Assembly (NCBI GenBank): GCA_964016885.1 | Contig: OZ024742.1 | Coordinates: 34,286,001 to 34,350,000 of the forward strand | Source of the DNA: Eledone cirrhosa | Taxonomy: Eukaryota | Direction: 5' to 3' | Length of the DNA stretch: 64,000 bases | Shown: piece by piece, positions 14,940 to 53,387 of the stretch | Position numbering within the stretch: position 1 is the stretch's first letter | Layout: each line of letters begins with the position of its first letter | Notes under the pieces: model-generated | Database searches by the model: none | Seen by the model: the letters and a program-made list of their open reading frames with translations, nothing else | What the model was told of the DNA's origin: nothing | Position numbers and translations under genes: made by a program

Positions 14940-16228
14940 TCGTAGGGTAGACAATACGGGACCATTTCGGTGCTGTTTAAGTCAGAGGCCCTCGCTATAA
15001 AACACGCTATAACACCTTGCAAAACCAGCAAGCTCATAATGTATCCCTCCTACATGAGAAAAAGAACGGCCCGTCTCCGCATTCCCGGAAACCCACCAGG
15101 ACTTGACATGTGGTGGCTTCTGGGATGTGTGATTGTGAAGGGGACGGATACCGTCCCGATAGAAGTGACAAGAACATCCAGAGAGGAATGGACCTGGAGA
15201 TACTTCTCCAGATCAGGCCGGAGAATGTGAAGACAATCCCGGACCACATCCACCTTCAGAATGGGACGGTCATTCATATTATGACCGAGGGCAAAAGGCC
15301 GAATTGTTTTGTTTGTGGGGAAAAAACCAATTTGCGAGCCTTCTGCCCTCAACTGCTGAAAGATGCAAGGGGTCGAAGGGCTCCACTGCTGCCGACGCCG
15401 AGGCGAGGACCACAACCAACACCAGAACCGGCAAAACCACCAGCAACAACACCAATAGAAAGACCACCACAAACCCAACATTGACCAACCAAGGGGCAAA
15501 CGAAGAAAGTTGTCACCCCCCCCCCCCCAAAAAAAAAATACACACATCAATAAAAACATAAACACACACACAGACACAGACCCCTCATCTACCAGTAGTG
15601 AATATGAGGGAAAACCAAAATCCCCCGAAATACAAAAAAGGAAACACAAAAAGAAAAAAAAAAACTCAGCAAAGCACAAAAACACCCACAATAAAAAAGC
15701 AGACACCACCCACGCAAACATTCCCCCAACAACACCAACATCAACACCACCATCACCAGAATCCCCCAAACGCAAACAACCTAAACAGACGCAAGAACAA
15801 ACACACAAACAAACATCTGAAACCACAGACACCGCACTCACAACAAACACAGACACAACCGAAACACCACCACCAATACCATCACCAACACAACCACACA
15901 AACAAATAAAATCACACCAACAAAATATACAAAACTTCGTGCTCGTCAGGAGGGCCAACAAAGAACTGACGGCCCTCGTAGCACGAAGTGAAAATATACA
16001 AAAAGAGGGGGAAATTTTTAATCGAGCACATTTCGCGTGCCAGAAGATTTGTTTCTGGTGCGAATGTCGCTCGATTTATACAAAGAGATACGAGACAGCT
16101 TTCCTCGGGACGTGGGAACCCCGAACGTAAAACCCACTTCAAGACTTTTAAAGGGGTTCCCAAATGAAACCCCACCAACTATGGAGGTAGAACCACCCGA
16201 CCTTCACAAGAGCCCGGAAGGTAAGTAA
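14940..16228 (+). pseudogene. LINE ORF1 (gag-like) remnant
   Basis: Fragmented frames with a degenerate zinc knuckle CFVCGEKTNLRAFC and a Pro/Thr/Lys-rich tail, upstream of ORF2. Confidence 0.65.
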
Positions 16229-16260
16229 ACCTTTCCTCTCTCTCTTTCTAACCTGCCAAC

Positions 16261-19200
16261 ATGGCCGTATTAAGAGTAGAAAGTTTAAATGTTCGAGGCC
16301 TGGGATCGTCCTGGAAGCAGGGTCACCTGCTCAACGACCTCAGGTCTCTAGAAATGAATGTAATTGCCGTCAGCGAGACCAGGATTTCCGACACGGGCGC
16401 ACTAACCCCCATTTTCAACGACTATCAGATCTTTGCATCTGTTAGCCGGCCGGGAATGGGAGGCGGGGTGGCAGTGCTGTTTAGGAAAGGCCTCTCGAGA
16501 TAAGGTCGATCTTCTGGGACCCGGACGGGAAGAGGGTGGTCCTGGACGTGAACAATAACGAAGGTGGTGCCTTTAGACTGGTGGCCCTCTATGCCCCTAC
16601 TTGGGCAGGAAGGCCGGACTTCTTTAGACGTCTGGAAGCCTTTCTGGGTACGTCTCGCCCTTTACTGTTAGCGGGGGACTAGAACGGCATCTTAGACGCA
16701 CTCTGGGACTGTGTGGTAGTATCCGATAGGAGCGGAGGGTGCAAAAGCCTCAAGAACCTGATCAGCCAGTTCCAACTGTCTGACAGAAACCACTAGATTT
16801 CCTTAATGCGCCAGACTTGGAATATCCGCATAGGGTCATTTAGATCGTATATAGACAGGATATTCATTAGGAAAATAGACAGAAATAGTGGAAGCTGTCC
16901 ACGTTTTAAAACGGTCGCCTATTCAGATCACAAGTTTGTGATCTGTATGGTCGACCTAGATAAGACGCGTAGGTTAGGACCTGGTTACTGGAAGCTGAAC
17001 ATGTCATTTCCGGCGCGTAAGGCTTACAGAGACCGGGTCAACAATTTAGTTAAGAAAAAGTTGACAGGGGTACTCGTCAACAATAGATGGCGGGGGCTCT
17101 CAAAAGAGAGATTAGAGTAATGTCAGTAGAGTTTAGCAAATAAGTAGCGTTAGAGAAAAATAGAAAAGAGGGGGAGTTGGTAGATAAGTTAGACGAGGCT
17201 ATTGGTAGTGGCATTGCAACTGACGTGCTAGCGTCGAGAATGAAAATAGACCATTTCTTCAATACAAAACCCGAAGGTTGCATTGTCAGAACTAATGTGC
17301 GTACTCTGACAAACGAGGGAACCAAAGCTGTTCGATGGGCCCGCGTGGCAGAGGCGCAGCGTGGTAATAAAACCATGATTCGGTCTTTGACGGACCAAGA
17401 CGGACACGAGCTGAACGATTCCAAGCGGATGTGTGAGGCCTTTCGCCAACATTTTGCTCGGTTGTTCGGGGGAAGTGGCGGGTCAGAGACGGTGGCGGAC
17501 TTCAGGACCTGCCTCGATGGTTTGCCGCAACTCTCGACGGTTGACGCTGGGCGCTGCGAAAGGCCAATTACTTCAGCCGAGATTCAGAATGCCCTTGTCG
17601 GCTTCATGAGGTGCAAGTCACACGGTTTGGATGGTCTTCCCTACGAGCTTTACGTAAATATGCCAGACTTGTTCTCCAATCTCCTCGAAGCCCTCTACTG
17701 CAACTGGCAGCAAAACGGGAGTATTCCCAGTTCTGTGAGCCGGGGCGTAGTGACGCTGATAAGGAAAGACGAGAACAAGAGGGACACATTAGACAATTTC
17801 AGGCCCATATCTCTGCTCAACACAGAGTTTAAGATTTTGGCCAGGGTGTTAGCGAAGAGGTTGGCGCTTGTCGTCGGGGATTTGGTTGGTGAGGCACAAA
17901 CTTGCGCAATCCCAACCAGGTCCATACACGACAATCTCCACCTAATGCGATACATCATAGAGCGGGTGGGTGTAAACCTGGCTTCGGTGGGGCTCTGATC
18001 AATTTAGATCAATCGAAAGCATTCGATAGGGTCGACCATCGGTACCTGGAGGCTGGCCTTAAGGCGGCTGGCCACGGCCACATCTTCAGAAGCTGGATCG
18101 TTGCAATGCACAGCGGCACCTGCTCGATGGTCAAAATTAACGGCCACCTCTCGGAACCGTTTCAGGTCTCCCGATCGGTCCCTCAAGGGTGCCCTCTCTC
18201 CTCCCTTCTGTACGTATTAACTCTCGAGCCTTTACTGCGGAAGCTGGAGCTGTTGCAGGGCATCCCGCTCGAACCGGGACGCGGAAAGGCTGTGTCGGCT
18301 TATGCGGACGACATCACCGTGATGGTGTCGGACACCTCAGAAATCGAGGTGGTCAGCAACTTATTGGAGGAATATGAAAGGTTGACGGGAGCAAAACTTA
18401 ACCTGGAAAAGTCGGTGGGCTTGCAACGCGGCACCTTGAGAGGCAAGTCCATGCCGTCCAACAGCGTCGTTAGGCGCTGGACGGACGGACCGGTAAAGTG
18501 GCTCGGGGTTTGGTTCGGGCCAGACCTCTAGGTGGATAAGAATTGGGATGAGGTGACGGGCAGGGAGGCTAGTCTCACCCAGAAATGGGCTGGGATGAAG
18601 CTATCACTGAAAGGTCGGGCGGAGGTGGCGAACGCGTACATCGCGTCCGTCATCTACTACCGTCTGACCGTCGTCCCTTGCCCCCGTTCGCGCCTCGCCA
18701 TCTTAGAGCGGCTCCTCTTCAAATTCTTGTGGAGGGGTCAGGTGCCGCTGGTGAGTCGGTCCATCTGCTGCCAGCACCCTCTACCTGCAGGGCTGGGCAT
18801 GCCGTGGCTAATGATGCGCAGACACGCGCTGAGGCTGCAGCATCTCCAGATATTCTGCCTAAACGGTGAACAGGTGTGGTCGCCGTTTGTCAGACGGGCC
18901 TTTCCGCAACTCGTTTCTTTGTCTGAGCTGCAGTCCTGGGTCAAGAAGAGACCGAGACTGGGTGACTGGCATCTGGAATGTTGCCAGGCACTCACTGCCC
19001 TCTACCAGGCGAGCAATGCGGTCAGTGGAACTTCCACTCTCGAGTTCTATAGAGGATTAGTGGTTGGCAAGTGCGACGACGCACTCGGAGAGGCTCTAGG
19101 AGTCAACGAAGTCGAACTAACCAGTCTGTACCGAAGGTCTTTCGAGCCGGGGACGATGGATAATTTCCAAAAATCCCTCGCTTGGCAGTGCTACCGGGGG

Positions 19201-19678
19201 GCACTGCCGGTTCGAGATAAACTCTACAGGCACGGAAGTGCTGTCAGACGGACCTGCCCGAGATGCGCGCAGGGCGACGAAACCGTTCTGCACGCACTCC
19301 TCCAGTGTCCGTGCATTACTGACTTGTGGAGTTATGTTGAACAGCTGTTGTCGCGTGTAGAGCGGAGCCGGCTATCGGCCGAGTCCATAGTGAAGATCGA
19401 CCCGCCGCCTTCTTTTGGCCAGGAAGGGCAGGCAATTTTCCTCTGTCTGGTGGCAGTATCGAAAGAGGTTGTATGGTGGACGAGGTTGAAAGGACTGAAG
19501 ACAGACACTTTTCTCTTCGGCCAATCCCTCATCAAATTTTTCAAGTTTCACTTGGAAAGGAAGGTGAAGGTGGAGAGAGAAGTGCTGCCCCCCCCCCCCC
19601 AGTACATTTGCTGAAAGGTGGGTAAATGTGGCGAGAACGGCCCGTGTGAGTGGGTCTACTCTGGTCATGCGGCTGTAG
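16261..19678 (+). pseudogene. LINE ORF2: APE endonuclease, reverse transcriptase, zinc finger (disrupted)
   Basis: SLNVRGL..SETR, YIDRIF..SDHK..GPGYWKLN, FRPISLLNTEFKIL, DQSKAFDRV, QGCPLS, YADD, CPRC..DETVLHALLQC, FAERW. Several stops and frameshifts. Confidence 0.92.
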
Positions 19679-22773: not shown

Positions 22774-23030
22774 ATAGTTATGTAATAAACGACATAAGTC
22801 AATTATTCCATTTACCAAATGTTTCACGAAGACAGACGAGCTTGACACACAATGTCTGAAATTGTTCGTCAGAATCAAAATTATTCCGACGAACGGTTTC
22901 AGACGTAAGTGTCAAGCTCGTCTGTCTTCGTGAAACATTTGGTAAATGGAATAATTGACTTATGTTGTTTATTACATAACTACATAGAACACTCTCCTTT
23001 CCTTTACCTTTCCTACGGAAACACTTAATG
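22774..23030. mobile_element. PLE-type palindromic fragment with a hammerhead in each arm
   Basis: About 100-bp inverted arms, the right with a ~45-bp extra tail. Minus-strand att CTGACGA ac...gt GAAAC atttg GTA aat at 22810-22875; the right-arm core is mutated to ccgacga. Confidence 0.7.
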
Positions 23031-23035
23031 TATAT

Positions 23036-24273
23036 TATATATATGAAGTCATAAGGACATATATATATATATTTAAACATAGTAACAGACGCATATATGA
23101 GTGTTGGCTACCTTCAACAGTGTGGCTTGATGAGGGAATGAATTAAATAAATAATTATCAATCAGAGCTATATAAATTATAAGTTTGAAAAATAGTCAGT
23201 CTAAATTTATCCAATTTTCTTCTTAATCCGTAGAAATTAACTAGATAAATAATCATTTGAACGGAGTGAAGTTTAAAATGTAACTCTGAAGAAATAACAG
23301 ATAAATGTTATCGATATTCATTTTATGAGGAAGAGTTAGATAAAATTTACCTAATCTTTCCTCTTAGTCCTTAGAGAACTTTTGGTAACGTTTATCTATT
23401 TTTCTTTCCCTTCAAACTTACATTTTAGACTTAGCTCCGTTTAAATGATTATTTGTCTAGTTAATCTTTACGGACTAAGTGGAAAGATTAGGTAAATTTT
23501 ATCTGACTATTCCTCATAAAAGGAATATCGATAACATTTATCTGTTATTTCTTCAAAGTTACATTTTAAACTTAACTCTGTTTAAATGATTATTTATCTA
23601 GTTAATTTCTACGGACTAAAAAAAAATTGAATAAATTTTGACTGACTAATTATATATATATAATTATTTGCTTGTATCTGTGACTATGTCTAAATATATA
23701 CATATATATCCCTATGAATTTATTCTATACTCCCGTTCGATCGAGTAAACCTTAGGCGGTATCTAACTGTTCTTTCTAGCAGCCAGCCTACTTGCCACCT
23801 AGCCACCATTCACAACCTTCTACTTTGACCACTAGCCACGTGATGATTCTTAGCCATTTTGAATTCATTTCTGGCGGCGATCACTGAAGAAATTTTAGTC
23901 CAAACTTGAGGGAGTCTCTTGATAAGCTCGAAACCTCATGGATAATACCAGGATTGTACATATCCACAAAGTACGAGCGAAACTATCGATAGTCGGGACT
24001 AGAGGAATTTTGGTAAAGTTTATATGCATTTTTTCTTCTAACTTACATTTTAGACTTAGCTCCGTTTAATTGATTATTTGTCTAGTTAATTTCTACGGGC
24101 TGAGGAAAGACTGGGTAAATTTTATCTGACTGTTCCTCGCAGGGGATAGTCTGTATCGTTTGCCTATTATTTCTTCATAATTACATTTTAAACTTATAGC
24201 CTCGTTTAAATCATTATTTATCTAGGGAGAAGAAAAATTGGGTATATTTTATCTAACTGTTCTTTAAACTTGC

Positions 24274-24280
<7 letters not shown>
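23036..24280. mobile_element. HHR-bearing family B (subfamily 2): inverted arm plus tandem greater-than-unit copy
   Basis: 23036-23375 is inverted relative to 23470-23725; 23380-23650 recurs at 24010-24270; shares blocks such as ttagccattttgaat..gcgatcact with 29457-30675. Confidence 0.75.
23913..24000 (+). ncRNA. Type I hammerhead ribozyme, U3-A8 core variant
   Basis: agtctc TTGATAA gctcg...cgagc GAAA ctatcgatag TC gggact. Confidence 0.8.
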
Positions 24281-24336
<56 letters not shown>

Positions 24337-25337
24337 GTAGTACGTCACTAATTTCATAAGTAAGATGAGATAAGCTCGATGCACTCTACGACCTGTGTTC
24401 AGTGAAGAGAAACTGGATGAATTAAGGGCAGTTCAGGTAGCAGAGCATTTAAAATTTAAATTTTAAGAAAGCCAAAGATACGAAATTATAATTTATTTGT
24501 ACATCTCTAGGAATGTTTCAACATGACTACAATTTCACATCCATTTGTGGAGAAACTTGAGATTACTAATTAACAATTAACTCCATTATCGGTGTTTTAT
24601 CCTAACCGTATCTCTTCAGGAAATATATAGAACAAAATAACAATAAATTAACACCACAAGACAAATATCAAGAAAAAGAGAGGTTTGAGAGTATGGAGCA
24701 TATAAGTAGGCAGTCAAAATTTTCAGTGCAATTTCAGGATAAGTTTAACAAGGTTTTCAAACATGTAAATTTATACATTTATTAGTGTTTTTTTTTTTCA
24801 GAAAGAATGTTATAACGAGGAATTGATTACAGCAGGGGTTGTGTGCGTTTGTTGGTTCGTTATGTTTGTTGGTAACAGCATGATTCTTTGTTTAGCCCAT
24901 GTTAAGCTGGCTTATCATTAATGGTGTTCCAACCGACGAATATACTTTCATTTTCTCTTACGAATTTCTACCTACGACAACGTTGTGTGTATTTAATAAC
25001 ATCTGCTTTCAAGACGACACAAATTCACACACCTCATCATAAATATGGTTTTTGAGTCTTACTAACACAATATATAATCTACAAATGTTATTATGTATTG
25101 TATTTGTCAGTTTATAAATATTGAAACAATAAATAAATAAAATAACTGAAGTCATATACGTCTCAACACGATGTTTCAAATCAATTTTTTTAAAAATCGA
25201 TAAAACAATTCTTGCTTTCTAAAATTTCAAAATATGTAAACAGTAACTGAGAAAAACGTGTGAAAGCTGTTTCGTATATATATGTCTAAAGAAGTAGACA
25301 TTTATTAATGTTAATTTTGTTTTTTGTTATTTTTATC

Positions 25338-25417
<80 letters not shown>

Positions 25418-26050
25418 ATGTGTGTCTGTGTGTGTGTGTGTGTGTACATATACATACATATATACACAATTTTCTGTTACTTCAACTAAAAAAATATATA
25501 TTTCATTAGTACATTTATATTTAAATCGAACTGGTAACAATAAACCCAGACATATGCATATACATACAAACCAGCTATACAATTGAAACTCATGTATATA
25601 CATGCATATACAAACATACATACACACACACACACATATTTATATATATATATATATATAATATTGATAAAAAAAATAAAAAACAAAATTAACATTAATA
25701 AATATGTCTACTTCTTTATATATATAGTGAAAGAGTAAAGAATAACATGGTCGGCTGTACAAAAAGGGTTTTATTTACAGTATTAACAATTGTTTCATTG
25801 ATCAGGTGAGTCTAAAGGCCGCTGATCACTCGAAGTTGCGTCACTCGACCTTAAATACAGCGTGTGTCTCTGGTCAAATCATCATTTATTCTTCACTCTT
25901 TCACTACTCTTACTCCAAGAATAACCTACATGGGAATTCTCGCAAACTCGCTACCTAACTAAGGAAACCTCTTGTCGTACGTTAAAACTATCCATAGTAC
26001 AGAGTACTCACAACCTCTAACTGGATTACCTGAAACGATAACCTGTTATT

Positions 26051-26131
<81 letters not shown>

Positions 26132-26153
26132 TATATGTATGAATACATTTATT

Positions 26154-26195
<42 letters not shown>

Positions 26196-26273
26196 AAAAG
26201 AGTCAGGACCCCGACGGCTGAACTCCGGCCGTTTCGACAGGTAGATCCGAATTATATATACATATATATATAT

Positions 26274-27216
26274 AAATATGTATACGTACATACATATATG
26301 TATACAGACGTACAGTAGTATGTATATATATATATATATATACATACATGCACACATATATATATGTACGTATGGATTCACCGAACATTTATTATAATGC
26401 TCGGTGTGTTTGTAAACAAACAGCCCGAATTAAGCCGTACAGTGTCTAGCAACCACCGTTGCTCATTTGTTCAACACTGACAAAGGAACGCTGTACTAGT
26501 TTCAAGCTTATTAGCTATCGTCAGCAACGTATACCTTCCTGCCAGATGATTGAACGTCTGAAAGTATATACTTTTCTTATGCATATTAACGGCTGAGCAG
26601 CCTAATTTGCCTATCGAGTGAGTTAATCGGCCGGGCGCACCGAAAACGATAAACGGAAAAAATGAAACGAAATTTCATTTCTCACTCTTAGTACGGCTGT
26701 TACTTAAATATAAGTATGTATACGTACATACATATATGTATACAGACATACAGTTGTATGTATATATCGTTTCATTTTTTCCGTTTATCGTTTTCGGTGC
26801 GCCCGGCCGATTAACTCACTCGATATGCAAATTAGGCTGCTCAGCCGTTAATATGCATAAGGAAAGTATATACTTTCAGACGTTCAATCATCTGGCAGGA
26901 AGGTATACGTTGCTGACGATAGCTAATAAGGTTGAAACTAGTACAGCGTTCCTTTGTCAGTGTTGAACAAATGCGCAACGATGGCTGCTAGACACTGTAC
27001 GGCTTAATTCGGGATGTTTGTTTACAAACACACCGAGCATTATAATAAATGTCCAGTGAATCCATACGTACATATATATATATGTGCATGTATGTATATA
27101 TATATACATACTACTGTACGTCTGTATACATATATGTATGTACGTATACATATTATATTTAAGTAACAGCCGTACTAAGAGTGAGAAATGAAATTTCGTT
27201 TCATTTTTTCCGTTTA
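26274..27216. mobile_element. Family A head-to-head palindrome, each arm longer than one unit
   Basis: Left arm period 438 bp, right arm period 429 bp. HHRs at 26489-26529 (-) and 26908-26948 (+). TA arrays on both sides. Confidence 0.88.
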
Positions 27217-27227
27217 TATATATATAT

Positions 27228-27512
27228 TAGAAAATGAGGGTTTTTTCAAAATGTGAAAATATAAGGAAAAAAGATGAAATCGAAAATGCAACTGGAGTCT
27301 TTTTAAGAATATTTATTTGGTTCCTTTACCGGTTTCGCAGTTCTTATGCTTTTCAAAAGTTGAATTGAGATGGAGGGTTTCTGGTAGAAAAACCACAAAC
27401 CCCCCATCTCAATTCTACTTTTGAAAAGCATAAGAACTGTGAAACCGGTAAAGGAACCAAATAAATATTCTTAAAAAACTCCAGTTGCATTTTCAATTAC
27501 TTCTTTTTTCTC
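27228..27512. mobile_element. PLE-type palindromic fragment (family D) with U3-A8 hammerheads
   Basis: ctt TTGAAAA gca..tgy GAAA ccgg TA aag at 27418-27453 (+) and 27324-27359 (-). Same family at 59808-60055. Confidence 0.75.
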
Positions 27513-27875
27513 TCTCTCTCTATATATATATACAGTATATATATATATATATATATATCGATATTGTTGGGCATCCACTGATGATTTATAAGTGCCCACC
27601 TGCGTATATTCCTATAGACTATGTGTAGGCTTCTACATAACCTGGATATTATTTTCCCAACTTGTAGAAAACTTATAATGAAACGATCGTTTGGAAGGAA
27701 GGATATATTTAATTATGTCTCATATAAAATAATACAACTTGGTATCCGCTACATCCGTATAGTTAGCACCCCAAACATATAATTGGGATTATACTAAGGT
27801 ACATCCTAATGTTTGTTGAGTGAGACGGAAGTCGGCCGGAGTATTGCTTAAAGCTTTCTCTGTTATTGTATTAAA

Positions 27876-27974
<99 letters not shown>

Positions 27975-28589
27975 ATATTCATATATACATGCATGTGTGT
28001 GAATATAACAATGTTTGATATTTTTTCTATTAATTCTTTTGATTGTTTAATTGGTTGATATTAGTTATACTATTATAACTATACTCTGTTTCTGGTGTTC
28101 TTTCCGTTATCATTGAGTAAGATTGTATTTTGCACGGTATTACATTGCCATAGGTACAGAAGCCATCGTGCGGTAGTGTGAGTTCGTAAATACTATACTA
28201 TATTTTACCCCTAATAGTAACTCTAGTGGAGTGTTTATTTAATTTCTTCATGATTGTCTGGCCCAGTATAACACAGGTACATCTGATTTACCCCACCTGG
28301 TTGTACTGGAACAACGTAAAACAAAATGACTCGTTTAATAATACAAATTGTTGCCGGGAATCAAACTCAACACCTTACTATCTCGAACAAGACATCCTAA
28401 CCACTTTGCTATGTATCTTCACTTAGCGTCATCAGATGACAAAATTACATACATGTACTCAATTAAGTGGTCACTTTAGAAAGACTTGTTTTCCCTCATG
28501 TGCAAAACAGCTGACGGATAATTTACATCTATGGCAGTGAGTAGCTTCCGTAGAAACTGGCTCGTAATACTTTGTATGGCTACATAATC

Positions 28590-28781
28590 AATAATTGTTT
28601 CTACTTTTGACACAAGGCCAGCAATTACTCAGTACATTACTGGTACTTTATTTTATCGACCCCGTAAGGATGAAAGGCAAAGTTAAACTCGGCGGGATTT
28701 GAACTCAGACCGTAAAGGGACGTAACTATGCTGGAAAGCATGTCGTCTGACCCTCTACCAATACTGCCAATCCACCGTCCT
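28590..28781 (-). mobile_element. tRNA-derived SINE, family 1
   Basis: Full-length reverse copy; partial plus-strand copy at 28858-28955. Confidence 0.85.
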
Positions 28782-29227
28782 CTTTAATCTTTAATCTGTT
28801 ATTATTAATTATTAATCTGTTATTAATCTAATATTATATATATATAATATTATATATGAGGTTAACTTAGCCTTTCATCCTTATGGGGTCGATAAAATAA
28901 AGTACCAGTAATAAACTGGTAATTGCTGGCCTTGTGCCAAAAGTAGAAACAATTATATATATATAATAACAGATTAAAGTTTAAGCAAAGAATCGCTGCT
29001 TTAATCTGTTATTTTAATAAATATTTGCTCTAGGGTTCTTATATATTTGATATATTTTTATCCTTATCAAGACCTCTTTGGACTTTATATACATATATAT
29101 ATATATATATATACATATACAGCCAAATTTGTATATCAACCTAATGGGAGATTATTATATATATATATGTTGATTTAAAACTGCACTATCCACAAGTGTT
29201 TTTTAACCTTCATATCATGTCTTCCTG

Positions 29228-29294
29228 TTTTATCTGATGAAAACACAAATATTATTGCATGATGATATTTGTTTTTGAAATGCGCATAATAAAA
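29228..29294 (+). ncRNA. Type I hammerhead ribozyme
   Basis: ttttat CTGATGA aaac..aaatatt...gatatttgttttt GAAA tgcgca TA ataaaa. Confidence 0.7.
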
Positions 29295-29419
29295 TATATG
29301 GAACTCTTTTAACCATCTTTTGTTCTTATATATTATATATGCTCCAGTCCTACAAACTGTAGAGTGCTTCTTATCCGATATCTGCACTGCTTTATTGTAC
29401 TACAATAAAACTCACCTCC

Positions 29420-29462
<43 letters not shown>

Positions 29463-29661
29463 TTTTATATGTAATAATCTCCCATTAGGTTGAGATACAA
29501 ATTTGGCTGTATTGTGCTGTGCTTTCTAGCAAAAATGCCACCAGTCGTAAGCAACTACCACACCCTTCCAACCTGACCGCGGCTACGTCACGATTTTTAG
29601 CCATTTTGAATGAATTCTTGGCGCGATCACTTTGGAAAATTTAGTGTCTAGATAAGAGCAA

Positions 29662-29749
29662 ACTTCCTGATGAATCCGGTGCTCGAGTTTATATAATTAT
29701 TACATAATTATTGGAAAACTCAAAATACGGATGAAACCATGGTAGAGGT
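29662..29749 (+). ncRNA. Type I hammerhead ribozyme with extended stem II
   Basis: acttc CTGATGA atccg...cggat GAAA ccatgg TA gaggt. Confidence 0.85.
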
Positions 29750-30318
29750 ATTTAAATGTATTCTATTTTCTCCTAGTTTATTTTACACCTAATTCTGTTT
29801 AGTTGACTGTATCTGGGCGATTACGCGGTCGAAATATTCGATGAATATTCCGTTGTGGCCGACGCGAAGGGCTAGTTTCGGTTATTTGTCGGAGATTTCT
29901 TCATAGAAGCCTCATTCTTATAGCCTGGTCTATACGATTTTTTATATAGTTAATTATGCTAATTGGGAGAGGAAATGGTATATATTTTATCTTGGGATTC
30001 TATACACTTGTTTTATGATATATAGCTCTGATTATTTAATTTATTAATTTTTCATTGAGCCACAAAGTGACCCGTTGCAAAACACGTATATGTATATATA
30101 TGTATATATATATGTAAACTTTTATATGTAATAATCTCCCATTAGGTTGAGATACAAATTTGGCTGTATTGTGCTGTGCTTTCTAGCAAAAATGCCACCA
30201 GTCGTAAGCAACTACCACACCCTTCCAACCTGACCGCGGCTACGTCACTATTTTTAGCCATTTTGAATGAATTCTTGGCGCGATCACTTTGGAAAATTTA
30301 GTGTCTAGATAAGAGCAA

Positions 30319-30406
30319 ACTTCCTGATGAATCCGGTGCTCGAGTTTATATAATTATTACATAATTATTGGAAAACTCAAAATACGGATGAAACCATGGT
30401 AGAGGT
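30319..30406 (+). ncRNA. Type I hammerhead ribozyme, second unit
   Basis: Same sequence as 29662-29749, 657 bp downstream. Confidence 0.85.
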
Positions 30407-30672
30407 ATTTAAATGTATTCTATTTTCTCCTAGTTTATTTTACACCTAATTCTGTTTAGTTGACTGTATCTGGGCGATTACGCTGTCGAAATATTCGATA
30501 AATATTCCGTTGCGGCCGACGCGAAGGGCTAGTTTCGGTTATTTGTCGGAGATTCCTTCATAGAAGCCTCATTCTTATAGCCTGGTCTATTCGATTTTTT
30601 ATATAGTTAATTATGCTAATTGAGAGAGGAAATGGTATATATTTTATCTTTGGATTCTATAGACATGTTTTA

Positions 30673-30766
<94 letters not shown>

Positions 30767-30862
30767 AGAGAGAGATAGATAGAGATAGATATGTAGATAT
30801 ATAGATAGATAGATAAATAGATAGATAGAGATAAGGAGATAGATAGGGAGATAGATAGATAC

Positions 30863-31160
30863 ATTTCTTTATTAGCCACAAGGGCACAAAAGAAGGGGAC
30901 AAATACAAATGGGGAGTTTACATACAGGTATATGAAAATAAAACTATTACTAAAATAACAAATAACAATTGAAATCCGCAATAGGAGGGAGGCGTTACAC
31001 AGGGGTTTTACACACCACGGAAAAAAGTACAACCCTCATCTCCAGGAGCACCAAGAGTGAGTACTACCGTGCTCTCTTCCTCTTTTTCCTAAACCTACAG
31101 GCTTATATAGGGAGATAGATAGATACGGAGATAGATAGAAGGATATAGATAGATAGATAT

Positions 31161-34249: not shown

Positions 34250-36364
34250 TTAATTGTAAGTTGTGATGTTGCTGTTCCACTCATATTTTCTATTTAATTT
34301 TGGTTGTAATTCTTTTATGCTTACTGCCTCTGTAATTTGCCCAAACATTGCATCTTTTCTGTGTGTGGATTCTATTTTTATTTCTATTTTCTCTAATCTA
34401 CACCTGTGTTCTATCTTAGCATGTTGCTAGAGCACAGATGATTCTTTATTATCTTGAAGGTCTCGCCAGTGTTCATTTATTCGTTCCCCTATACTACGAG
34501 CTGTCTCACCTATGTACACTATATTTTTGTTTCTACATTGTCCTTCAGTACATCTTATGCTATACACTACATTTCTAGTTTTACAGTTAATATGGGGGCT
34601 TATTTTACAGGTTATACATTTCTTATCTATACATGAGGGTCTTTGGAACGGGTATGTCTTGCTAATAAGTGTTTTTACGGAGGTACCTGGTCTTTCTACT
34701 ATCTTAATATTGAGTTTATGTTTATTTAGGGCCCTTCTAAATTTGTAGGCTAGTTCGCCTCTAGGGGTTGTATTGATGAACATTACACTCTGGTATTTAT
34801 TGCTATCATACCATGAGTTTATTCTATTGGCCTTGTTCCTAGTTCTTTCTATTCTATTCCAAAATTTGCTCCTATACAAGGGGCAGGTCCCATTTATGTC
34901 ATTATTTACCATTTTTTCCCATTTGGTTCTGGCTCCTCTATACACTCTGATTCTATCTCTCTGATTGTAGCCAGAGAACTGCATACGGTGGATGAAGTGT
35001 TGTATGTGTCTCTCTAGTTCTTCGGGGTTGCACATGCGGGACACATTTCTCATCACCCGTACCAAATCCGCAATCAGTATGTTGATTTTGGTATGGTCCG
35101 AAATGGCCGAGTTTCGGTGGATCAGATGTTTGGAAGTCATGGGTTTGGCATAATGGGAATGGAGGATCTGTTTTTGGTTGTTAATGGTATCTAACCAGAG
35201 CTCTGTGTCTAGTACAGGTAATCGATGGTTGGGGTGTCTACTTGGGTAGTCTATAGTAACTCTAATGCTCTGGTGGATGGAGTTTGCTATTTGCTGGATG
35301 CTTTCCATTGTGTTTTTCTCTAGTTCCTGACTGTTCTTTAGTGGGGGTGTCTTAACTACGATGTTTATATCATCTACGTAGCGGGAGTACATTATCAGGG
35401 TTAAGCTGTCTTCTAATTGTTCTTTAAGTTTTTGTTTAAGTCTACTGTCCCACCATACCATGAATAAGTTAGCTATGTCGCCTGCAATGCTAACACCAAT
35501 GGCTGCTCCTTCCTCTTGGGCATATGTTTTACCATTAAATTTGAACATATGTTCCTTAAGGGTTAATTTTATGCTGGCCCCTACCGCATGTGCAATCATT
35601 TTCTTCAGTTCACCGTGGTTTTCGGGTGTCCGTATGGCTCTGGTCCACCCGTTCCATCTATCTGTGTGGGTTTTCTTGGCCATTAAGGTAATGGTAGGTG
35701 GTCTGCCTCTTGCTGGTCTTGTAGGGCACAGGTTGCTAAGGTCATAAGTGTCTATGTAACTATTACTATGGGTAAGCTTAAGTAGAAGTCCCAGCTCACT
35801 GGTATCAATCCCACGGAACTCAACCTTGCTCTCGCTGATCATTTCTACGCATTTCTCCACAGCAAAATCCACGTCAATAGATGGATACAGGGACACAACA
35901 TCCATACTGCCTATTATGCAGTTTGTTAGGTCCCCAGATCGGTTACCCGCGCCGATTCTGCTGAGGAGGTCCTCCGTGCTGTCACATACATCTGGGGACA
36001 TCTCAATGATGGGGCGTATGATCAGGGAGAGGAAGTAGGACAGTCTGTAGTTACTAGCAATGTTAGCTCCACAGACTGGCCGTGTTGGTGGTCCCGCGAC
36101 AGGGTCACAGCCCGTTTTATGGTCTTTCCGAAGCCCATACAACGCCGGCACGTCATTGTTCCAGGCCTGGAAGTTGTTGGCAGTCCTTTTGTTGGGCTGC
36201 ATTATATTCGTCCACATCACCATATGGGCATTGAGGGCTTTTTCTCTATCCTCATGCTCCTGTGGTGTTACCTCTCTTGTGTTAGTGATGTGGGTTTGCA
36301 TTGCCTGGATGTAGTTTGGCAGGCTGTCAACCGACATTCTGCCAGACTTGTCTGTTGGAAAGCA
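34250..36364 (-). pseudogene. PLE reverse transcriptase / GIY-YIG endonuclease with one premature stop
   Basis: PTDKSG, LRKDHK, TRPV, SMDVVSLYPS, QEEGAAIG, YVDD, PVLD, CxxxxCxxC linker, NVVYSIRC..YIGETARSIGERINEH. The frame continues past the TAG at 34427-34429 as QHAKIEH..ITEAVSI..KLNRKYEW. Confidence 0.92.
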
Positions 36365-36646
36365 TATATATATATATATATATATGATTTCTATTTTAGT
36401 CGTTTTGGAAGCCCCAACAATGCAGATGGGTACATCTCCGGGTAACAGAATCCGGTGGTGAAGAGAGAGATGTAAGGGAATGTAGAATGAGATGTATAGT
36501 GTGTAGAGGAACGTAGGAAAGAGCGTAAAAATTAAAAAATAATAACACCAGATAGAGCTACCTTGGGAGAAATTTAATTGTCCCTATATTCGGATTCGAA
36601 TCCGTCAACTGGGGGGCTTTCTGGGAGGGGGGAATTATATATATAT

Positions 36647-42478: not shown

Positions 42479-42550
42479 TCTCTCTTTCTCGATACGTAAA
42501 TACTATATTACCGTGCTCCTTTTGTAGAGCATCTCACCTTATTTGCCATT

Positions 42551-45283
42551 ATGTTGGAGAACCAACCGTTACCCATGTCTCTCAAGTGTATCCCCTTACA
42601 CAGCAGAAAAACCTACCTTAAACTGCTTATAGACGCTACTAATTCGTTTATACGGAGAGTCAGATGGAAGGCCTACCACCTGGATAAGAACACCCGTAAC
42701 CTTCCTGAACCCAAAGAGAGGTATGGTTTCAAAACATACCGAAACCCACCGCACAACACCTTACTGGACTCCTTTGAAGAGGACCTGCTGAAAATGATCA
42801 AAAACGTTAAGTTCAGAAAGAAACACCAGTGCAGCAATCCATTCTTAACGTCCCTTGATACACTAATAACTAAGATCAAGAATGACCCGCACCTCTTCGT
42901 CACCTCCGACAAAACCAAAAAGCTGTACAAGATGGACGCGAGTGAGTATAAAATATTCATCTATAAGGAACTACACAAAGACTACAAAAAGACACCCTCT
43001 AGTACCCTAAATGACATAAATAGAGTAGGGAAGGATATAGTCACCAGCTTAGAAATAGAAAAGTACACTAACCCGTACGTCTCTCTGACGCCTAAATTCT
43101 CTCTTAAGGATCACAAATATGACTTTAATGAAAGCCCCTCTATTAGACTTATATGCCCCTCTACATCAGATATAGGTAAGATTAGTAAAGTGATCCTTGA
43201 CAGAGTACTACTCGAGCTTAATAGAAAGGCTAAGGTCTGCCTCTGGGGCAACACCGACCAGGTCATGAATTGGTTCACCGAGTTGACGGATAAAGCCACC
43301 CTGAAATTCATCCAGTTTGATATAGATAGCTACTACGCCTCTATCTCCCCCATACTCTTAAATAAGGCACTTATCTTAGCTAGATCTAACACTAGCCTCA
43401 CCAAAAAAGAAATAGACATAATTCTAGCGGCACGTAGAACCATTATCCAGTTCGAAGGCTCCCACTGGACCAGAACCAACCGTCCTGATAACTTCGATGT
43501 CACGATGGGGTCCAGCGACTCAGCGCAAGCAACTGACCTGGTTGGGATATACCTCCTACATAAGCTTAGGGAAGAAATACCGGCCCTACAAGGAGGTGTA
43601 TATAGGGACGACGCCCTGTTTACCGTTAGGAACCATAGCCCCCGTAGGATAGAGAACCTTAACAAACATATACACAGGTTCTTTAAGTCATACGGCCTAT
43701 CCGTAACTATGGACCTCAACCACAGGGTTGTCAACTTCCTGGACGTGACCCTGGAGTTGAGTACGGGCTTATACAAGCCATACCATAAACCTGGAGAGTG
43801 CCTCTCTTATATTAATTATGCCTCCAACCACCCTAGGCAGACTCTCAACTCCATAGTCTATAGTATCTCACATAGAATCTCGAGGCTATCCGCCAATGAG
43901 GATATCTTCAACCAAGCGGCTGATTACTACAATAGGGCCCTGATAAGCGCCGGCTTTAACCGAGGAATTTCCCACATCCCTAACGCTAGCTCTAGAAACC
44001 ACCCCCCTCATAAAACTAACGTTATAGTAAGCCATACCTATAACCGATCACGCGGCGACCTCGTTAAAGTCGGATATAATAGAATAGATAACCGCACCAA
44101 AGATCACGTCCCCGGCGACGGTGAATACTGTAGATTACTCAAACTATTCCCCTATTACAAAACCAACAAAGGCGACGGCCTACTACCAACGCCTTCCAAC
44201 CAACATCTTCGTGTAAACATGGAAGTGGTAGAAAGAGTGCACCCAAGCATAAAGTGAAAGGGGCACCGAACGGGCGACAGCGCATTAACACACATAAGAG
44301 CGATCACTTAGATGGAACCACCCGTAGCAAAAGTACAAGGACACGTAATCGCCACCGTAACGTCCTATGGCTCCACCCCCCCCCCCTACTCTCGAAGTGT
44401 GGCCTCCAACATACCCCGGATATTCTTCGAAGCCTTAGAGAAGAACTTCCCACCCAACCATAGGTATAGAAAAATTCTTAATAGGAACAATATAAAAATA
44501 TCCTTCTCTACTACTCCTAACCTAGCAGACATCATAGGAACAACGAACCACAGTAAGATCACCAAGACACAGCACCTCGACGCAGACGCACCTACACCTG
44601 ACAATAACTGTATCGGCCTTAACAACTCCCTGACAGCATCCAATAGTGTTGGCAACGGGATCCGCAGACGCAACCAGAATGACCGCGAAGTGACTGGGGA
44701 GCATGCAAAACATGGCGTGCGGAATAACAATCGCACCATCCCGCGTGCTGCGGGTTGTAATTGTGCTAACGACAGCTGCGGTAGCGCAGCTTGCAACGTA
44801 GGCAGCAACAATGATAGCCTTATCGTGGGAAATAGACGGAACAGCGACAGAAATTGCAACTGCCGCGACAGAGTACGGTACCCCCTTAGAGGATACTGCT
44901 TGACTGATAGGGTTATATATAGATGCACTATTACTAGCCACAATAGCGTTAAACATTATATAGGGGCCACCTCCGGCCCGTTCAAAATTAGGTTTCGAAC
45001 ACATCTCCACTCTTTCACAAATAGAAAACTAAGGCACTCCACCTCGCTCGCGGACTACATCACATCACTAAAGGACTTAAACATTAGCTTCTCCACGCAC
45101 TGGGAGATTGTCGACAGGGCCGCACCGTACAACTTCAAGAGGAAATGCGATCTTTGCCTCATGGAGCTCTACCACATCATAACTGCACCCCACGAGCTCA
45201 TCAACAGCAGAGCTGAAACAGCGATAAGTTTTACACATCGCTTAAAAATATCCTTCTTTAGATGGGTTAAGAATGAAGAGTGA
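42551..45283 (+). pseudogene. PLE RT / GIY-YIG polyprotein with two frameshifts
   Basis: SDKT, LKDHK, IRLICP, FDIDSYYASI, TMGS, YRDD, NFLDV, SNHP; RNVLW..PP in a shifted frame; CNCR..PLRGYCL..VIY..YIGAT..FKIRFRTH..CDLCLME. Confidence 0.9.
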
Positions 45284-45535
45284 AATAGCACACTGGATCT
45301 CCCTGAAACAAGTCTTAACACCCCGGCGGGCAGGCGCAGCAAAATAACACCCAGAAAACAATCCCTGCATACCAAAAATTATCCGGGAAAGACTGCCCTA
45401 ATACCGGCCAAAGTTACCTCCCTTGACCTGCTGCAAAATCAAAACAAGATATTTTTGTGAACAATGAATCTTGATGTGGATTTAACCCCCAAAACTCTTT
45501 CCGAACTATATAAGGAACACTTGTGATTGTTTATG

Positions 45536-45572
45536 CCCTTGAGAAGCCCAACTGGGCAAAACGTACGTAGGT
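45536..45572 (+). ncRNA. Hammerhead-like motif, U3-A8 variant with G12 mutated
   Basis: cc TTGAGAA gccca ac tgggc aAAA cgtacg TA gg. Confidence 0.55.
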
Positions 45573-45628
45573 GATATTTTAAATAAACATGTTTTAACGG
45601 TCTATTCTCCGATTTTTTACTTTCCCAC

Positions 45629-45694
<66 letters not shown>

Positions 45695-52516: not shown

Positions 52517-53387
52517 CGAGGTGTATCAGAAAAGTTCCAGGACTGATGTCACAAAAGATTTATTTCAAACCCAAACTTCCCACTAAGAGTTTTCTCCTTC
52601 AAAGTAATCCCCCTGGAGTATGTAACTATAATCTTAGCTCTCTGCACCGATCAAACATTTTTCTTCATAACTTTATATACATGTCCTCTGTTTCAGGTCG
52701 TCAAGCAATGAGCACAGAGCAACGAACAAACTTGAAGTTTCTGGTACGGTTGGGGAAAACTCCGTCAGAAGCACTGGGATTGCTGCAGCAAGTGTATTGG
52801 GATGAGACGATGTCACGCCCACATGTTTTTGAGTGGCGCAAGATGCCCCGGGAGCGGAAGGCCCTCAAAAACCAGGACTGAGGTCAACATTGAGCGCATC
52901 AGGTGGATGGTGCGTAGCGATCGTCGGCTGACTGTTCGACTGATGGCAAATGAGCTGGGCATGAATCGGGACAGCGTCTGGAAGATTCTCACTGAAGATT
53001 TGGACATGCGGAAAGTTTGCGCGAAGATGATACCAAAACTGCTGAACGATGACCAGAAGGGTCGACACATGCAAGTGTGCCAGGACATCCTCGAGCGTCT
53101 TGAAACCGAACCAGACTTGCTAGGGACAGTCATCACCGGTGATGAGTCATGGATCTTCGAGTACGACCCGGAGGGGACCCGTTTTGAAGACGTGGACGAC
53201 ATCAAAAAGGTCGTGATGACGGAACTGCGGAGGATCCCGGAAGAATCCTTCCAGGAGTGCATGCAAGCGTGGCAGAAAAGGATGGAAAAGTGCATTAGAC
53301 TCCAGGGGGATTACTTTGAAAGAGAACACTCTTAGTTTGAAATAAATCTTTTGTGACATCAGTCCTGGAACTTTTCTGACACACCTC

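Follow-up and report, generated by a model that had tools for sequence, protein, structure and literature searches.

Non-coding hammerhead repeats of the octopus Eledone cirrhosa that are probably copied by Penelope-like elements

We analyzed a 64,000-nucleotide stretch of the Eledone cirrhosa genome (assembly GCA_964016885.1, contig OZ024742.1, positions 34,286,001 to 34,350,000 of the forward strand), hereafter the window, which contains two insertions, A and B, of a non-coding repeat carrying type I hammerhead ribozyme motifs. Compared with its relatives in the 3.0 Gb host genome, the repeat is probably a non-LTR (long terminal repeat) retrozyme that depends on Penelope-like elements (PLEs): its RNA would be copied in trans by a PLE protein with reverse transcriptase (RT) and GIY-YIG domains. 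The class of element is already known, as non-LTR retrozymes or non-autonomous PLEs. The evidence comes from compensatory changes in the hammerhead, from the two fixed 3' ends of the insertions and the hairpin beside them, and from an excess of 5' ends at the predicted cut.

Two insertions and their superfamily

The B element (29457-30675) is a 657-nt unit repeated 1.85 times, and its units are 98.2% identical over 568 nt with 10 internal differences, in agreement with an earlier reading made from the letters alone (the sequence-only reading), which had described a near-identical 1.85-mer with a hammerhead in each unit. The B dimer is real, on the basis of these differences and of similar dimers at other loci; among the contigs of three runs from one sample, no listed piece spans it. 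The unit is non-coding, with 35% GC (below the 45% retrozyme limit), and no open reading frame (ORF) of 45 aa or more from an ATG lies inside A or B (longest, 44 aa), as the same reading had stated; two longer ORFs merely touch the TA flanks. That reading had treated 23036-30675 as one family B region, but A and B are separate insertions, 5 kb apart with unrelated DNA between them, and it had overlooked a fourth hammerhead in this span, at 29234, which is part of a coding PLE. Its view of 23036-24280 as a homologue of B holds in that the two are 62% identical over 532 aligned columns (blastn detects the similarity only at 23685-23899, at 69%), but A is not tandem like B; besides a single unit, with a single hammerhead, it comprises a truncated direct piece and an inverted arm.

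Where two subfamilies had been proposed, at least five were found (A, B, D, E and F), mutually 60-76% identical, with unit lengths of 657-718 nt; copies of B match the one in the window at 95-98% identity. A first look at the genome gave 3433 candidates for B, 2643 for A, 3964 for D, 4811 for E and 3499 for F, numbers that are not copy numbers and may overlap between subfamilies; 40 candidates were scored per subfamily. The copies are insertions of 0.3 to 2.5 units with mapped PLE-type junctions, dispersed over many chromosomes. Separately, the 3' half of the unit (window 24000-24280 and equivalents) consists of diverged internal repeats of about 140 nt. A pattern scan of metagenomes gave nine matches, none of them homologous.

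It is highly improbable that the repeat is a satellite, or a repeat resembling a short interspersed element and mobilized by a long interspersed element (LINE), with an incidental hammerhead-like motif. The dispersal of the copies, the two internal 3' ends and the compensatory changes described below all argue otherwise, as does the unit itself, in which we found no tRNA and no AATAAA on the sense strand, even though Rfam recognizes no hammerhead here and B pieces lie within a larger tandem duplication at one locus (three B matches within 7 kb on C1, no ORF).

The hammerhead motif

A descriptor scan found four hammerhead motifs in the window, against one in 20 shuffles taken together. Three of them belong to the repeat, at 29667 and 30324 in B and at 23919 in A, with the cuts (Table 1), stems and cores that the sequence-only reading had predicted (acttc/gaggt, CUGAUGA and ccatgg in B; agtctc/gggact, UUGAUAA and ctatcgatag in A). 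Stem II pairs as quoted there, with one exception: the fifth pair of A occurs in just 8 of the 28 A copies that are in register. The motif is of the PLE variant, with a long stem II containing an internal loop and a palindromic, self-complementary stem III, which alone forms no hairpin in B/D and A. Rfam lists no hammerhead among 83 matches in 22900-31000, and window-wide all of the 150 matches listed, out of 257, are simple-repeat noise, so that the motif call rests on our own descriptor and on covariation.

Across the five subfamilies, represented by 12 hand-picked intact copies, 96% of the cells in the alignment pair, and in 8 of 13 pairs both partners have changed, among them a C3-G8 to U3-A8 change in the core; slid structures reach 34-44%. 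Because the alignment rows are related, these figures are not a probability. Within A, a double change also preserves the stem III palindrome. The changes in the helices are thus compensatory, and they support the view, put forward in the sequence-only reading, of a hammerhead under selection in a non-coding, more-than-unit-length retroelement.

Insertion structure and the two 3' ends

The insertions have the architecture of PLEs. Among 79 B and D loci, an inverted 5'-truncated arm is present in 45 (43 in a tails-out orientation by script, 2 by inspection), and (TA)n adjoins 109 of 124 arm ends. Two fixed sites, a short (S) and a long (L) end, account for nearly all 3' ends; they lie 90-144 nt apart depending on the subfamily and bound an optional tail. 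Two-armed loci in which both ends are standard combine one S with one L end in 36 of 38 cases (p=3e-9 against a maximum of 50%; seven loci with a non-standard end omitted, and one end, in locus L022, assigned by hand). The same pairing occurs in 55 of 57 loci of a partly overlapping set chosen on the 3' part only (10 omitted) and in 10 of 12 loci of A, E and F. These three subfamilies and a coding PLE family, C, follow the B/D pattern, including the inverted arms (A, E and F) and the S and L ends. L1-type twin priming, with a direct arm starting at the 3' end of the inverted arm, was not evident on inspection of the 79 loci.

A pair of neighbouring internal RT start sites with a tail between them has been described as a feature found only in PLEs, with a protein dimer predicted (PMC11167929), and a tail on one of two inverted pseudo-LTRs (pLTRs) is known qualitatively (PMC3846280, PMC8557442). 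The pairing of a short with a long end in two-armed insertions is apparently a new addition.

Upstream, arms that extend beyond the unit enter the tail of the same unit, and 13 of 124 cross two or three cut sites. Units within a locus carry common private variants (34 in L159) and diverge by 2.6-3.3%, against 4.2-4.5% between loci, and tandem units are as similar to each other as the opposite arms of a locus are. This similarity is compatible with a circular template or with template jumping and is proof of neither. At L099 (745-1400, minus strand), a chimera of D and F joined at a short common word suggests a template switch between two RNAs.

A classical retrozyme cycle, in which two hammerhead cuts release a 657-nt circle for rolling-circle reverse transcription, is a sub-case of PLE-dependent copying with the circle as the main template. 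It would explain the arms that span several cut sites and the shared variants, and other animal retrozymes have been shown to form RNA circles (PMC7229834). The same patterns would arise from linear multimers or from template jumping, the circular fold is at a z of about -1.6 against 25 shuffles, and one variant in L018 is present in two of three units; we hold the circle as main template to be possible, at somewhat less than an even chance.

A bulged hairpin beside the two 3' ends

Both 3' ends are accompanied by a hairpin that was first seen with RNAalifold as a nearly invariant element of the tail; the fold of the 3' half of the unit is otherwise weak (31 pairs, three with double changes). 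A descriptor of the form CUC, inner stem, loop, U(U/A) bulge, GAG detects the hairpin at the S and L sites of all five subfamilies; the scanned stretches contain no other match, and the rate in shuffled units is 0.03 per unit. Its outer and inner pairs vary with compensation. It lies 7-10 nt beyond the 3' end in all 13 site-family pairs, and a distance of 8 nt before the CUC is compatible with 10 of them.

Since the descriptor was derived from retrozyme sequences, coding PLEs provide an independent test. Eight ORF starts were covered, including two family duplicates and two 5'-truncated copies, and the hairpin was found by script in the leaders of four families (family C, the second PLE of the window, L142 and L205) against a background of 0.03 per 390 nt; the leader at L171 represents a fifth family, by eye. 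Family C has it at both ends, the L copy without the outer pair, and the S-end tail of the second PLE of the window has no match. We infer that the hairpin is likely a signal that positions the RT, and that the partner of the retrozyme is likely a clade of coding PLEs with the same hairpin in their leaders. Separately, an abundant short TA-flanked repeat, seen in the flank of L171 and at many loci, also has a CUC..UU-GAG bulged hairpin and is possibly a further non-autonomous PLE.

Coding PLEs and the partner question

The window itself contains coding PLEs. Family C, whose 3' pLTR adjoins the B element (Table 1), has two pLTR copies flanking an RT/GIY-YIG ORF in L081 (2977-6772) and S and L ends in 9 of 19 loci. 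Such a family raises the question, named in the sequence-only reading, of whether the B unit is simply the untranslated region (UTR) or solo pLTR of a coding PLE: family C is exactly a pLTR with the same end structure, and the genome holds tens of thousands of PLE endonuclease candidates. Among 146 loci, of which 90 are single-armed, we found neither a common in-register extension upstream nor, within 600 nt, a PLE ORF on the same strand; with 0 of 90 single-armed loci linked to an ORF, the unit does not, within this sample, represent the UTR of a coding PLE. The upstream continuations lead into the tail of the same unit, and family C differs in that 5 of its 19 copies enter a longer 3' UTR. 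We consider it quite improbable that the unit belongs to a coding PLE in this way. In L171 an F copy lies 876 nt before a PLE ORF, a linkage that was rejected, with unrelated repeats lying between the two; the one strong match of the partner search is likewise a separate insertion and not pLTR homology.

The coding elements show further features of their own. Of 19 family C copies sampled, about 12, often in both arms, begin at one and the same position, which precedes an uncut hammerhead by about 70 nt, a count biased by the choice of query; this fixed start, unlike family B, looks like a transcription start. The second PLE of the window (42551-45630) is young, with copies 94-99% identical in the C-terminal 147 aa. 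Its pLTR hammerhead, at 45539, has a U3-A8 core that is intact in 25 of 27 copies and changed in the window copy, and its bulged hairpin lies before the ORF, at 42516. A third, 5'-truncated PLE ORF (34427-36583, minus strand) has weak RT and GIY-YIG Pfam matches and probably belongs to a different clade from the second; the hairpin was not seen in its 3' 470 nt. The only named protein match to the PLE ORF of the window is from Argonauta, at 37%, and the PDB gave no match to it.

5' ends at the predicted cut

If the hammerhead cuts its RNA, some cDNAs should run off at the cut, and 5' ends do accumulate there. With loci re-picked on sequence downstream of the ribozyme only (190 kept; L404 and duplicates dropped), 37 of the 191 arms that extend into the region stop within -5 to +25 of the predicted cut; for arm-bins elsewhere the figure is 76 of 1089 (p=4e-7). 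This interval was set on the first 86 arms (18 stops), and the later replication set shows the same excess (19/105 against 44/591, p=0.001). The excess persists with one arm per locus (30/170, p=1e-5) and with TA microhomology as a covariate (odds ratio 2.3, z=4). The bin immediately upstream of the cut is at background (9/154). A second cut site is reached by 16 arms, of which 4 end there. By subfamily, stops number 9/68 in B, 11/31 in D, 9/35 in E, 7/32 in F and 1/25 in A. About 80% of the arms pass the cut, which implies that most templates are uncut, religated or circular.

The excess probably reflects cleavage in vivo; a structural stall is a distinctly less likely source. Under the corresponding alternative, the element would depend on PLEs and be copied from uncut read-through transcripts, its hammerhead would not cut in vivo, and the RT would merely stall at the folded motif. 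Stops are most frequent at +5 to +9, at the edge of stem I, which makes stalling on the folded ribozyme possible, and the large share of arms that go past the site fits such a stall as well. Minimal PLE hammerheads cleave poorly (PMC4209133), and a PLE hammerhead was dispensable for insertion in vitro, with no RNA-seq reads that ended at its cut (PMC11167929). Three observations stand against a stall. First, the stop rate is not raised in the structured motif upstream of the cut. Second, several junctions lie at +1 (L268 and L431; L280 via a fold-back; L297 and L300 with TA ambiguity). Third, the catalytic core is preserved, including the C3-G8 to U3-A8 double change. We regard the non-cutting alternative as unlikely.

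Beyond the position of the peak and the dispensability in vitro, further points weigh against a PLE-dependent retrozyme with a working ribozyme. Subfamily A lacks the cut-site excess and F alone is borderline (p=0.054). The covariation rows were picked by hand, and the shuffles ignore their relatedness. Folded as monomers, six hammerheads mostly do no better than shuffled sequences (z -0.1 to -2.6), the first stem II pair of D is a U-U mismatch, and 44% of the ungapped columns are invariant across subfamilies, so that conservation extends beyond the ribozyme. Among frog retrozyme dimers, one of nine cleaved (10.64898/2026.07.22.740005). Finally, nhmmer found no homology of the unit to the pLTRs of 60 PLE loci (30 GIY-YIG and 30 second-PLE loci, representing few families), so that the link to coding PLEs is structural only.

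Proposed mechanism

The PLE-dependent retrozyme would move as follows. Multi-unit copies would be transcribed from a promoter that probably lies upstream of the hammerhead; an 11-nt invariant block (Table 1) is possibly a part of it and may be YY1-like. Just a portion of the RNA would be cut by the hammerhead, which would probably act as a dimer joined through the palindromic stem III or with the aid of protein. A PLE protein would then bind both hairpins, nick (TA)n and begin reverse transcription about 8 nt 5' of the hairpin. Priming of both strands, with S used on one and L on the other, would produce the tails-out inverted structure. On cut RNA the cDNA would run off at the cut, whereas on uncut, religated or circular RNA it would pass, and more-than-unit copies would be rebuilt. 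A bolder and tentative version, to which we give a little less than even weight, holds that the pair of CUC/GAG hairpins, common to coding PLEs and to the retrozymes as their parasites, may be the cis code of PLEs, with the RT starting about 8 nt upstream and a dimeric protein taking one hairpin per strand, and that cleavage in the germline may mark about one fifth of the arms.

Features of the window

Table 1. Coordinates of the A and B elements and of the adjoining pseudo-LTR in the window
Feature	Position	Strand	Remarks
Tail end of a further 5'-truncated B unit	29457..29470	+	joined to (TA)n
B unit 1, 657 nt	29471..30127	+	starts one base past the L 3' end, runs to the next L end
B unit 2	30128..30681	+	stops at the S 3' end, into (TA)n; 3'-most bases shared with the TA tract
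Type I hammerhead motif in B unit 1	29662..29749	+	long stem II, palindromic stem III; predicted cut after 29744
Type I hammerhead motif in B unit 2	30319..30406	+	predicted cut after 30401
Optional tail between S and L ends of B, about 103 nt	30018..30127	+	
Bulged hairpin (CUC..UU-GAG) just 3' of the B S end	30025..30060	+	candidate RT-positioning signal
Bulged hairpin just 3' of the B L end	30134..30153 (second copy); 29477-29496 (first copy)	+	
11-nt block, invariant across five subfamily representatives	29597..29607	+	upstream of the hammerhead
A-subfamily unit	23726..24280	+	S end, in (TA)n; hairpin of the L type at 23730
A hammerhead motif	23913..24000	+	U3-A8 core, GUC triplet; predicted cut after 23994
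5'-truncated direct A piece	23372..23725	+	begins 6 nt past the predicted-cut position; tail partly deleted
Inverted 5'-truncated A arm with tail	23036..23375 (start about)	-	blast to unit position 692/718; L end by eye
Inverted fragment of B unit start	29117..29163	-	
3' pseudo-LTR of coding PLE family C, not part of B	29165..29422	+	hammerhead core 29234, predicted cut after 29288, bulged hairpin 29342

Elsewhere in the window, 15100-19600 and 52700-53340 hold fragments that resemble, by eye, the RT of a LINE and the transposase of a mariner element. By chance, the flanks of L008, L010, L013, L014, L022, L034, L045, L064, L072 and L074 yielded at least five more families of hammerheads with a palindromic stem III.

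Relation to known elements

Non-LTR retrozymes of animals were reported as 170-400 nt, with PLEs named as candidates for their mobilization (Cervera and de la Pena 2020, PMC7229834), and later as families of 51-972 bp, with a mean of 650 bp in ray-finned fish, read as non-autonomous PLE derivatives (Li, Clavereau and Pollet 2026, preprint 10.64898/2026.07.22.740005; 35 genomes, by the stated sampling without molluscs). The elements described here resemble them in their non-coding, low-GC tandem units with a type I hammerhead each, and their unit size is outside the 2020 range and inside that of 2026, where mobilization by PLEs is also proposed. Both the size range and the PLE origin are published, so the octopus element joins a known kind; the unusually large, separate lineage that the sequence-only reading had suspected is not supported, and the U3-A8 core is also on record, in Schistosoma PLE hammerheads, together with dimer-type PLE hammerheads that have a self-complementary stem III (PMC4209133). 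The element differs from the published retrozymes, which form long arrays with a canonical short hammerhead and RNA circles that have been demonstrated, in its dispersed short multimers and PLE-variant hammerhead and in being known from sequence.

With PLEs that have pLTR hammerheads (PMC4209133; Poseidon PAc, PMC11167929; rotifer Penelope, PMC3846280), the superfamily has in common, in the sections cited, the partial tandems, the inverted 5'-truncated arm, the tail at a single end, the AT-rich target, the palindromic stem III and the U3-A8 core; it differs in having no ORF and a tail of 90-144 nt, compared with 30-40. The non-autonomous Chlamys PLEs, such as MRC1 (PMC8557442), are likewise non-coding head-to-tail units with pLTR-like partial tandems, and microsatellite targets occur in their clade. 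They generally have the 3' sequence of an autonomous family and most have no hammerheads, whereas here only a structural motif is in common. The cut-site excess, the hairpin and an octopus report were not found in the literature searched, which lay mostly outside subscription journals and Repbase.

Three questions are concerned: the role of the hammerhead in the PLE cycle, the way in which the PLE RT selects its two internal start sites, and the enzyme that moves animal retrozymes, which has so far been argued from co-occurrence and pLTR similarity. The superfamily yields sequence evidence on all three, and it supplies short non-coding templates and a defined hairpin for mutation.

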